DNA of 64,000 bases, taken from the NCBI RefSeq assembly GCF_011045215.1, contig NZ_CP049201.1; one strand, 5' to 3'. Numbering within the stretch: the first letter of the stretch is position 1; each line of letters opens with the position of its first letter. This document shows positions 50,995 to 54,574 of this stretch, piece after piece. Source of the stretch: Escherichia coli (GTDB taxonomy: Bacteria > Pseudomonadota > Gammaproteobacteria > Enterobacterales > Enterobacteriaceae). Under the pieces are notes generated by a model. That model made no database searches, was not told the origin of the DNA, and saw only the letters and a program-made list of their open reading frames with translations. A program made the translations under genes and the position numbers.

Positions 50995-51855
50995 CTAGAT
51001 ATTAACATTAAAAAGATGGCTTACGCTTTCGGCTAACGTTGTCGTTGGGTGGCCAATCAATTTGCTAAGTGTTTTGCTGTCATCAAACAGACCGCCTTTC
51101 GATGCGCCAACGTCAGAATCCGCCAGCATATCCGCCAGTCCGTCGGGCAGTCCGACGCTTTTCAGTGCCGCGGCGAAATCGGCTTCGCTCAGATTTTGAT
51201 AGGTAACCTGTTTGCCGCTTTGTTTGGTCAGCTCTGCCACTAACTGTGTCAACGTCCAGGCACTATCGCCCGCCAGTTCGTAAACCTTGCCTTCGTGACC
51301 GGCTTCGCTAATCACGCGTGCCGCAGCTGCCGCATAATCTGCCCGCGTTGCTGAGGCGATTTTGCCATCGCCCGCCGCACCGATAAATACGCCGTGTTCC
51401 AGTGCTGCCGGGGCGCTGGCGAGGTAGTTTTCGCTGTACCAGCCGTTGCGCAGCAGGGTGTAAACGATGCCAGAGTCAGCCAGCATTTTCTCCGTCTCGA
51501 TGTGCTCATCGGCGAGGCCGAGCGGGGAGGTATCTGCATGTAGCAGGCTGGTATAAGCGATAAATTTCACGCCAGCCGCCTTTGCGGCATTAATAACATT
51601 ACGATGCTGCGGGGCACGTTGACCCACTTCGCTGGAAGAGATCAGCAGTAGTTTTTCCACTCCCTGAAGTGCAGATGTCAGTGCGGCTTCATCGCCGTAG
51701 TCAGCCTGACGCACGGTAATGCCTTGTGCTGCCAGGGCCTGGGCTTTTGCCGGATTACGAACGATAGCCACTATTTGGCTGGCAGGAACCGTTTTCATCA
51801 AGGATTCAATAACATAGTGACCAAGTTGGCCAGTGGCACCAGTAATAGCGATCAT
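50995..51855 (-). CDS. qorB: NAD(P)H:quinone oxidoreductase QorB (YtfG)
   Basis: 286-aa ORF with N-terminal Rossmann motif (ITGATGQLG), NmrA-like family. Confidence 0.9.
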   Translation of the reverse strand: MIAITGATGQLGHYVIESLMKTVPASQIVAIVRNPAKAQALAAQGITVRQADYGDEAALTSALQGVEKLLLISSSEVGQRAPQHRNVINAAKAAGVKFIAYTSLLHADTSPLGLADEHIETEKMLADSGIVYTLLRNGWYSENYLASAPAALEHGVFIGAAGDGKIASATRADYAAAAARVISEAGHEGKVYELAGDSAWTLTQLVAELTKQSGKQVTYQNLSEADFAAALKSVGLPDGLADMLADSDVGASKGGLFDDSKTLSKLIGHPTTTLAESVSHLFNVNI

Positions 51856-51943
51856 GGGAAGTCTCCATCGTTTTGTCTTGAGTTTAAATACGCTAACACC
51901 TAAACTTACTTTTAGTAAGTACGTACAAAAAGGTAAGTATGAA

Positions 51944-52324
51944 ATGAGTCAGGTTAGCCTGTCGCAACAACTGAAAGAGGGTAATCTCTTTGCGGAACAG
52001 TGCCCGTCGCGCGAGGTGTTGAAACACGTCACCAGCCGTTGGGGGGTGTTGATTCTGGTGGCGCTACGCGAAGGTACTCATCGCTTTAGCGACCTGCGGC
52101 GCAAAATCGGCGGGGTGAGCGAAAAGATGCTTGCGCAGTCGTTACAGGCGTTAGAACAGGATGGTTTTCTTAACCGTATCGCGTATCCGGTGGTGCCGCC
52201 GCATGTGGAATATAGCCTCACGCCGCTGGGCGAGCAGGTGAGCGAAAAGGTTGCTGCACTGGCGGACTGGATTGAGTTGAATTTGCCCGAGGTGTTGGCG
52301 GTGCGGGATGAACGTGCGGCATAA
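51944..52324 (+). CDS. ytfH: HxlR-type winged-helix transcriptional regulator YtfH
   Basis: 126 aa from MSQVSLSQQLKEGNLFAEQCPSREVL (ATG 51944); the listed 163-aa ORF extends upstream into the divergent ytfG start region. Confidence 0.85.
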   Translation: MSQVSLSQQLKEGNLFAEQCPSREVLKHVTSRWGVLILVALREGTHRFSDLRRKIGGVSEKMLAQSLQALEQDGFLNRIAYPVVPPHVEYSLTPLGEQVSEKVAALADWIELNLPEVLAVRDERAA

Positions 52325-52441: not shown

Positions 52442-54385
52442 TTACTTACTCAAATCCACCTGATAAATCGCAAACCCGATATCATCGGTCGCGACTTTAT
52501 TCATCGGATATTGCCCTTTCTCTTTAATAAACGCTGCGGCTTTATCTGACGGGGAAGTTTCGAAACGGATATCCAGTTTCTTATCGCCAGCAATCGGTGC
52601 TAAACGCCAGTTGTTATCTGCCGCCGGGTGAATTTCCCCCGCACGTTTCGACTCATCAGCAAACCACGCTGCCAGCACCGAGCGGTTCTCATCCGGTGAA
52701 GCAAAAGCGATATGGCTGTCGCCCGTACCGGCAAATTTGCCGCCGTAAGCGCGATAGTTATTGGTGGCAACGAGGAACATAGCGTTCGGATCAATCGGCT
52801 TGCCATTAAAGGTCAGGTTCTTAATCCTTTCCGCATTGGCATTAATCATCTGGCACTCGCCGTCATAACGGGCGGGCTGGGTAACATCAATCTGATAATT
52901 CACACCATCAATAACATCAAAGTTATAGGTGCGGAAACCGTCCCAGTTGATGAGTGACTGTGGTTTCGTGCTGTTAGGATCAATCTGGTTAAACTGTCCG
53001 GCGGAGCACTCCAGCCACTCTTTCACCTCTTTACCGCTGGCTTTCACCACAATCAGCGTATTGGGGTAGAGATAAAGATCGGCGGCATTACGGAAGGTCA
53101 ACTGGCCTTTTTCCACCTCCACATAGCTTGCCGGGTCATTTTTGCGACCACCAACTTTAAACGGTGCGGCAGCTGAAAGCACCGGCAGTTTTGCCAGATC
53201 CGGATCGCCCTGAATGTAATGCTCGACATACGCTTTTTGCGCGTTGTTCACCACCTGCACGGTCGGATCGTCCTGCACCAGCGCCAGATAGCTATACATA
53301 TTGTCGGCAGATTTACCGATTGGCTTGCTGACGAACTGGCGTGTGGCATCGTGATCGGCTTTGAGTGTTTCTACCAGCTTGCTGTCTTCCGCTGCGAGTG
53401 ATTTTTTATTAGCGATATCGTAAATCGGCCGTGCTTCCGCTTTCGCCTGCGTCACCTGCCATTTACCGCTGTCATTACTGAGTTGTAAGTCGACCACCCC
53501 AAGATGATCGCCCCACATGCCTGGCATTACCGCCGGAACACCATTCAGCGTGCCTTTGGCGATATCAGCCCCTTCGATATCAGCAAAATCTTTACCCGGG
53601 AAAACGGCGTGAGCATGGCCAAACATAATGGCGTTAACGCCCGGAATTTCACTGAGGTAATAAACTGAGTTTTCCGCCATCACTTTATACGGATCGGCAG
53701 ACAGCCCGGAATGTGCCAGAACGACAACAACATCGGCACCTTTCTCGCGCATTTCAGGCACGTATTTGCGCACGGTTTCGGTAATATCATTCACTGTCAC
53801 TTTCCCGGATAAATTAGCTTTATCCCAGCCCATGATTTGTGGCGGCACGACGCCAATATAGCCAATCTTCAGCGTCTGTTTTTTTCCGTCTTTATCGACC
53901 ACTTCGGTGTCTTTAATTAAATACGGTGTAAACATTGGCTGTTTGGTTCTGGCGTCAATGACGTTGGCATTTACATAAGGGAATTTCGCTCCTGCCAGCG
54001 CATTTTTCAGGTAATCCAGACCGTAGTTAAACTCGTGGTTGCCAAGCGTTCCGACGGTATAGTCCAGCGTATTTAATGCCTTATAGACCGGGTGAATATC
54101 ACCTGCTTTTAATCCTTTCGCCGACATGTAATCGGCCAGCGGACTCCCCTGAATCAAATCGCCGTTATCGACCAGTACGCTGTTTTTAACTTCATTGCGG
54201 GCATCGTTAATCAGGCTTGCCGTACGTACCAGTCCGAATTTTTCCGTGGCGGTGTCTTTGTAATAATCGAAATCCATCATGTTGCTATGCAGATCAGTGG
54301 TTTCCATGATACGCAGATCGACCGTCGCTGCATTCACACTGGCGGCAATCAGCGTGGCCAGGAGCGTTGCGCTAAACTTAATCAT
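52442..54385 (-). CDS. cpdB: Periplasmic 2',3'-cyclic-nucleotide 2'-phosphodiesterase / 3'-nucleotidase CpdB
   Basis: 647 aa from [28 protein letters not shown] (signal peptide); metallophosphatase plus 5'-nucleotidase C domain. Confidence 0.93.
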
Positions 54386-54574
54386 CAGGGACATCCTTTT
54401 ATCATCGGGAATACGAAAGAAAAGGGAGAATAAACGTCTTACTTATAGAACAGTGAAGAATGCCACAATTTTACGCTTTGAAAATGATGACACTATCACA
54501 GTTGGCGCATTCATTAACGATAGGGTATAAGTAAAACAATAAGTTAACACCGCTCACAGAGACGAGGTGGAGAA

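Follow-up and report, generated by a model that had tools for sequence, protein, structure and literature searches.

A conserved candidate operator between qorB and ytfH of Escherichia coli and the probable repression of qorB by the HxlR-type regulator YtfH

We suggest, with a probability of roughly 0.7, that YtfH acts locally, as a dedicated repressor of qorB, the quinone oxidoreductase gene that diverges from ytfH, and probably also as a repressor of its own gene. It would be a one-Cys regulator of the HxlR/DUF24 type that electrophiles release from DNA and, together with qorB, would correspond in enterobacteria to QorR-qor2 of Corynebacterium glutamicum. The initial annotation had proposed that YtfH probably regulates qorB, and this proposal is supported by CRISPRi data from the literature, by synteny, and by a conserved candidate operator that lies over the predicted −35 element of qorB. 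The comparative data, the concrete candidate operator, and the promoter layout are new here.

Prior evidence for regulation of qorB by YtfH

That the connection between YtfH and qorB was already known is supported by a SEED-style annotation, in which the enteric ortholog of ytfH is named QorR, and by a recent CRISPRi preprint. The annotation appears among the subsystems of a 2013 Cronobacter genome paper, where ytfG and a 380-nt gene designated "qorR, redox-sensing transcriptional regulator QorR" are both filed under "NADPH:quinone oxidoreductase 2" (PMC3759002). In the preprint, CRISPRi of ytfH increased the expression of qorB by a log2 fold change of 4.6, or about 24-fold (supplement of bioRxiv 10.64898/2025.12.20.695731), a value that comes from unreviewed work in which only about 4% of the cells gave a qorB signal and dCas9 was positioned within about 100 to 200 bp of the qorB promoter, where a local effect on qorB is formally possible. 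The authors of this December 2025 preprint found qorB to be the sole differentially expressed gene upon CRISPRi of ytfH, proposed that YtfH regulates its divergent gene, and listed ytfH among the regulators without prior binding data. YtfH has otherwise been counted among the uncharacterized transcription factors of E. coli (PMC4797297, PMC9308461). Since the annotation (PMC3759002) and the preprint precede our analysis, both the hypothesis and part of the test that had been proposed for it were already on record.

The locus and its gene products

The window, which is the whole 64-kb stretch of DNA that was analyzed, carries the chromosomal gene order cycA-ytfE-ytfF-qorB<>ytfH-cpdB-cysQ, and the features of the divergent region are collected in Table 1. 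The start codons at 51855 and 51944 and the distance of 88 bp between them, as given in the initial annotation, are borne out by the sequence, the ORF list, RefSeq, and the K-12 genome. The RefSeq annotation of the closest genome again has qorB and ytfH with an unchanged 88-bp gap. In K-12 MG1655, qorB (4433164-4434024) and ytfH (4434113-4434493) have the same layout and the same gap as in the window, and the two spacers differ by a single base, at 51881.

Table 1. Features of the qorB-ytfH region, with positions counted in the window
Feature	Position	Strand	Description
qorB (ytfG)	50995..51855	-	286-aa ORF, start codon 51855-51853; NAD(P)H:quinone oxidoreductase with an NmrA-like fold; named qorB in RefSeq
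Upstream extension of the ytfH frame	51833..51943	+	Part of a mechanical ORF (51833..52324, GTG start, 163 aa); noncoding
qorB/ytfH divergent intergenic spacer	51856..51943		Exactly 88 bp, start codon to start codon
qorB Shine-Dalgarno sequence	51863..51866	-	Minus-strand GGAG at 7 nt from the ATG; CTCC kept in the spacer alignment
Candidate ytfH promoter	51883..51912	+	−35 TTTAAA (51883-51888), 18-bp spacer, −10 TACTTT (51907-51912)
Predicted qorB extended −10	51890..51898	-	TGTTAGCGT on the minus strand; hexamer TAGCGT (51895..51890)
Near-invariant block (phylogenetic footprint)	51904..51941		Mean majority fraction 0.965 versus 0.74 in the flanks (spacer alignment)
Site 1, candidate YtfH dimer operator	51904..51920		Perfect 7-3-7 palindrome ACTTACT-TTT-AGTAAGT
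Predicted weak qorB −35	51913..51918	-	TTACTA, 17 bp from the −10, within the palindrome; predicted by reading the sequence
Site 2	51921..51938		Weaker pseudo-palindrome ACGTAC-N6-GTAAGT (direct and inverted repeat search)
ytfH	51944..52324	+	ATG at 51944; annotated product of 126 aa; HxlR/DUF24-type winged-helix regulator

The assignment of ytfH to an HxlR-type regulator and of qorB to a quinone oxidoreductase agrees with the Pfam, PDB, and RefSeq data. YtfH is a member of the HxlR/DUF24 winged-helix regulators: it matches the Pfam HxlR profile (PF01638) at positions 2-88 of 91 with an E value of 2.6e-32 and a score of 110.9 bits (cut-off 20.8). It is close to an unpublished Salmonella structure (PDB 1yyv, 3e-70), and its relatives in the PDB include HxlR, YodB, HypR/YybR, and YtcD. 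QorB matches the Pfam profiles NmrA (3.2e-24) and NAD_binding_10 (4.1e-21) and is the protein of PDB entries 2zcu and 2zcv, "oxidoreductase ytfG" (4e-179).

The frame of ytfH had also been described as open upstream into the start region of qorB. It is literally open as far as the GTG at 51833, but comparison across genera indicates that this has no biological meaning. Among the 80 Enterobacterales loci compared, only those of Escherichia and Pseudocitrobacter and a handful of others have a long extension, and most genera have an in-frame stop 12 to 16 codons upstream of ytfH. Because the extension is restricted to few lineages and adds nothing to the match with the HxlR domain, it is a chance open frame. 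We therefore rejected the extended ORF as coding sequence, and the additional stretch is a lineage-specific accident.

Conservation of the divergent pair

Synteny was surveyed with one genome per species at 80 Enterobacterales loci encoding a YtfH ortholog. A divergent qorB ortholog lies upstream of ytfH, across a spacer of about 85 to 100 bp, in 78 of them. In the two exceptions, a Lelliottia (L043) and another enterobacterium (L054), genes resembling thiol:disulfide interchange proteins take the place of qorB. Beyond the orthologs, a divergent NmrA-like gene is still paired, at a distance of 84 to 100 bp, with relatives that share 67, 65, 61, and 56% identity with YtfH. Adjacency in a single genome proves nothing; its recurrence in 78 of 80 loci and in four distant relatives is more than chance. 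The layout is that of the QorR type, with the regulator divergent from an NmrA-like gene of the YtfG/Qor2 type across a short shared control region.

Homologs at 52, 49, and 44% identity have other neighbors. Because homologs at or below 52% identity are differently flanked, divergent pairing is a trait of the YtfH subfamily and not of HxlR proteins generally. The more general statement of the initial annotation, that HxlR-family regulators as a rule govern a neighboring divergent redox gene, thus holds for the close YtfH subfamily but does not extend to the more distant homologs. The idea that qorB and ytfH are adjacent by accident and functionally unrelated could appeal to these homologs and to the two genomes in which qorB is missing beside ytfH, but we discount it almost completely, as it is already contradicted by synteny that reaches down to 56% identity, by the CRISPRi result that points to a link between the two genes, and by the family precedents QorR and RrpA/RrpB, which favor a functional one.

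Cys20 as a candidate sensor

The sole cysteine of YtfH, Cys20, is located near the N terminus. Of the 115 aligned representatives of YtfH relatives, 109 keep it. Cys20 aligns with Cys6 of YodB, a protein that shares 35% identity with YtfH across 93 residues. Cys6 of YodB is needed for the sensing of both quinones and diamide (PMC3351151). By virtue of Cys20, YtfH would belong to the thiol-sensing subgroup of the DUF24 regulators.

A conserved block and a candidate operator

The spacer between the two genes contains a near-invariant block. Mean pairwise identity is 0.949 over positions 51904-51938 and 0.64 over the remaining spacer. The corresponding values in the flanking genes are 0.52 (qorB) and 0.56 (ytfH) at codon position 3 and 0.91 and 0.96, respectively, at codon position 2. 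The 35-bp block is thus as conserved as the second codon positions.

Two sites can be recognized in the block. The half-sites of site 1, ACTTACT (51904-51910) and AGTAAGT (51914-51920), have centers that are 10 bp apart and are near-invariant across 80 genomes, and site 1 was the sole match found within the 64-kb window when two mismatches were allowed. The right half of site 2, GGTAAGT (51932-51938), directly repeats the right half of site 1 exactly 18 bp downstream, a spacing that all enteric spacers and six distant loci share. ACGTAC (51921-51926) could be a degenerate left half, in which case there would be two abutting dimer sites. In most genera, site 2 abuts or overlaps the ribosome-binding site and the start codon of ytfH, and conservation at the 3' end of the block could partly reflect these two elements.

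The palindrome taken alone is weak evidence and not significant, because 12% of dinucleotide shuffles of the AT-rich spacer hold an equally good one, with perfect inverted arms of 7 nt or longer. How the block varies between genomes is more informative. In Proteus and Morganella, the 3-bp spacer TTT of site 1 is changed to AAA or TAA, and both half-sites are retained. In the relative at 67% identity (L082), TTTTT replaces the AAAAA that separates the second half-site from the third, again with retention of the half-sites and of the 18-bp spacing. The center of the left half-site is either T or A, and no compensating change occurs elsewhere. This combination of fixed half-sites and changing spacers points to a protein-binding site.

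The protein in question is putatively YtfH itself. The palindrome persists beside ytfH in both of the genomes that lack qorB at this position, one of which has the perfectly symmetric variant ACTAACT-TTT-AGTTAGT. Since it stays where qorB has been lost, the candidate site follows the regulator, as would be expected for an autoregulated operator. Related versions of the motif also adjoin more distant homologs with other partners (L087, L088). From these comparisons, we infer that 51904-51938 is bound by YtfH.

Predicted promoters

A simple scan for the sigma-70 consensus found no canonical promoter in the spacer region. It has been reported that the spacer is selected in vitro by the RNA polymerase sigma-70 holoenzyme alone, and Shimada et al. 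predicted the hexamers TCGACA-15-TACATT for qorB (PMC3946193). We looked for these hexamers in and near the spacer and did not find them. A minus-strand TGnTAnnnT is present at an identical offset from the candidate operator in all 81 enteric spacers, and of the six distant spacers, five have TAnnnT at that offset, so that one or the other is found in 86 of 87. This element fits an extended −10 of qorB, with a predicted transcription start near 51883.

A promoter for ytfH may be interdigitated with that of qorB. In 83 of the 87 spacers, a plus-strand TAnnnT falls within the left half-site and provides a candidate −10, and a GTT at 51882-51884 that is conserved in the spacer alignment opens a possible −35 element, TTTAAA. 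These elements would be consistent with a ytfH promoter whose −10 is inside the left half of site 1, a placement that we suggest only tentatively.

Proposed mechanism

Starting from the repression of qorB by YtfH, which is supported by the literature, we infer an operator, a promoter geometry, occupancy by two dimers, and a redox or electrophile signal. A YtfH dimer would putatively sit on the 7-3-7 palindrome at 51904-51920, and a second dimer probably on the abutting weaker site that ends with GGTAAGT. The palindrome is located 8 bp upstream of the predicted extended −10 (51898-51890, minus strand), and YtfH on this site would therefore cover the −35 region of qorB. In the same position, it would also lie over the candidate −10 of ytfH and the beginning of the ytfH transcript, so that both promoters would be blocked. 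Quinones or other electrophiles may then oxidize, thiolate, or alkylate Cys20, upon which YtfH would leave the DNA and the NAD(P)H:quinone oxidoreductase would be derepressed.

A more specific version of this model, which we advance tentatively and doubt somewhat more than we trust, is that the block is a two-dimer operator inside interdigitated qorB and ytfH promoters, that one YtfH assembly switches both genes, and that the third half-site also belongs to the ribosome-binding region of ytfH. If the third half-site has this double role, the occupancy of the DNA and the signals for translation may be coupled in the same bases. Once the operator, the promoter layout, and the signal of YtfH are fixed, they would complete a small, self-contained circuit for defense against electrophiles and quinones in a model organism.

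Alternative explanations

The block might be kept for the overlapping core promoters together with the ribosome-binding site of ytfH, or for another factor, with YtfH acting on qorB elsewhere or indirectly. The selection of the spacer by the holoenzyme alone would agree with this explanation, as would the position of the candidate −35 and −10 elements of qorB and ytfH in or beside the block and the fact that the ATG directly after GGTAAGT is the start codon in most genera. However, core promoters and ribosome-binding sites rarely keep 95% identity between genera over 35 bases in a row, and GTAAGT half-sites repeated at fixed spacings of 10 and 18 bp do not belong to promoters. The third half-site of L082 precedes the start codon by 14 nt and for this reason is not simply a Shine-Dalgarno sequence. 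Moreover, the motif tracks YtfH-type genes even in the absence of qorB, and related motifs stand beside the distant homologs with other partners. We consider it unlikely that promoter and translation signals, or another factor, account for the block.

YtfH could also be an activator of qorB, a role that has been assigned to HypR, HxlR, and RrpA. HypR activates hypO and RrpA activates mdaB, and a site centered about 30 bp upstream of the start of a promoter with a poor −35 element could in principle serve an activator. However, the knockdown of ytfH lifts qorB expression about 24-fold instead of lowering it, and an extended −10 promoter needs no activator. Activation by YtfH thus seems very improbable.

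It is also conceivable that the block functions as an RNA element in the 5' untranslated region of ytfH, where ACUUACUUUU (51904-51913) would pair with AAAGGUAAGU (51929-51938) and hide the ribosome-binding site, with a short hairpin at 51904-51920 as the other fold. The spacer does contain two inverted repeats that exclude each other, and the minimum-free-energy fold takes the long pairing. However, the folding energy does not stand out (z = −0.61), and of 200 shuffled sequences, 52 fold at least equally well. There is no sign of covariation: 55 of 80 genomes have an A.A mismatch as the central pair of both hairpins, and the variant GGTTAGT occurs mostly with ACTTACT, a combination that does not compensate. 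No Rfam family was recognized, the sole match having an E value of 0.36, far under the gathering score. The left arm may even escape transcription, because the candidate −10 of ytfH lies within it. On the grounds of folding, Rfam, and covariation, we rejected the RNA element, which we find scarcely credible. A YtfH operator remains our preferred explanation of the block.

Comparison with known systems

A close parallel to YtfH is QorR of C. glutamicum, an HxlR/DUF24 repressor of a quinone oxidoreductase that senses diamide and H2O2 (PMC3351151). The likeness between the two lies in the divergent pair and the single N-terminal cysteine, and the host of QorR belongs to a different phylum from E. 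coli. In the work of Ehira et al. from 2009, qorR and qor2 are reportedly divergent, with qor2 a homolog of ytfG, and QorR is said to regulate its own gene and to depend on its lone cysteine, Cys17, as an essential residue.

YodB of Bacillus subtilis belongs to the same Pfam family as YtfH. YodB and CatR repress reductases for the detoxification of quinones and diamide and are released upon thiol modification (PMC3351151). The intersubunit disulfides of YodB, however, use C-terminal cysteines that YtfH does not have, and YodB controls several unlinked targets, whereas qorB was the sole gene that responded to CRISPRi of ytfH. HypR of B. subtilis shares its fold family with YtfH (PDB match to 4a5m and 4a5n) and has an N-terminal sensing cysteine. 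Its operator is a 7-2-7 inverted repeat that is also located downstream of its own promoter (PMC3351151), compared with the 7-3-7 repeat of the candidate operator between qorB and ytfH. HypR is a two-Cys activator of hypO, whereas YtfH, with its one cysteine, behaves like a repressor.

Among the named NCBIfam models, those of RrpA and RrpB score best with YtfH (1.8e-18 and 1.5e-12). The scores of 66.7 bits for RrpA (NF047367, cut-off 175) and 47.6 bits for RrpB (NF047364, cut-off 185) are far below the cut-offs of the models, and we rejected YtfH as a member of either group, to which it is only related. In Campylobacter jejuni, RrpA and RrpB are encoded divergently from the reductase genes mdaB and nfrA, have an N-terminal sensing cysteine, and bind inverted repeats in the intergenic DNA (PMC8765430). 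Their partner enzymes are flavoproteins, whereas the partner of YtfH, QorB, is NmrA-like, and RrpA is an activator, whereas YtfH behaves as a repressor. Since QorR, YodB, and RrpB already establish the same logic, the general understanding of the family is unchanged by the qorB-ytfH pair.

Structural relatives of QorB and start codons of the neighboring genes

Apart from YtfG itself, the triphenylmethane (dye) reductases (about 1e-56) are the closest proteins of solved structure to QorB, a hint that in the cell the enzyme may act on bulky electrophilic dyes besides quinones.

In Escherichia, the ATG within GGTAAGTATG is out of frame with ytfH because the sequence here differs by 1 nt from that of the Citrobacter type (GTATGAAAATG versus GTATGAAATG); the same ATG is the ytfH start in most other genera. 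In the window, this out-of-frame ATG begins a two-codon mini-ORF, ATG-AAA-TGA, the stop codon of which overlaps the annotated ATG of ytfH. The mini-ORF could act as a start-stop leader or in translational coupling, or it may be without meaning. Downstream, the mechanical ORF of cpdB encodes 650 aa, and the RefSeq annotation of related genomes gives 1944 nt (647 aa), a minor start-codon ambiguity.

Coordinates of the features discussed
Feature	Sequence	Position
QorB coding region	window	50998-51855
Mini-ORF	window	51939-51947
Annotated ytfH ATG	window	51944
cpdB	window	52442-54394
ytfH locus, qorB missing	L043, one Lelliottia nimipressuralis genome	1856-2933
ytfH locus, qorB missing	L054, Enterobacteriaceae RIT714	1790-2867
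Related upstream sequence	L087	1043-1161
Related upstream sequence	L088	1-118
Region of the second HxlR-family gene	L091, GCA_022637355.1	2889-4363

Loci without qorB and more distant HxlR homologues

Two ytfH loci, L043 and L054, are natural cases of an orphan regulator: qorB is missing, and ytfH is adjoined instead by DsbD-like and thioredoxin-like (Scs/Dsb-type) genes. Both keep the ytfH palindrome; at L043 it has become perfectly symmetric, with decay of the third half-site.

HxlR homologues of 42-44% identity (L087 and L088) also have related sequences upstream, AACTTACTTTAGG ... AAGTACGCACCTTTTGGTAAC, which suggests that the half-site is common to a wider subfamily. The divergent partner at L087 is a YceI-like gene, and the L088 contig is too short for any neighboring gene to be seen. 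A further genome (L091) carries, about 1.5 kb from its YtfH-like gene, another member of the HxlR family, which is transcribed divergently from a short-chain dehydrogenase gene, an example of the regulator-plus-reductase modules that recur in the HxlR family.
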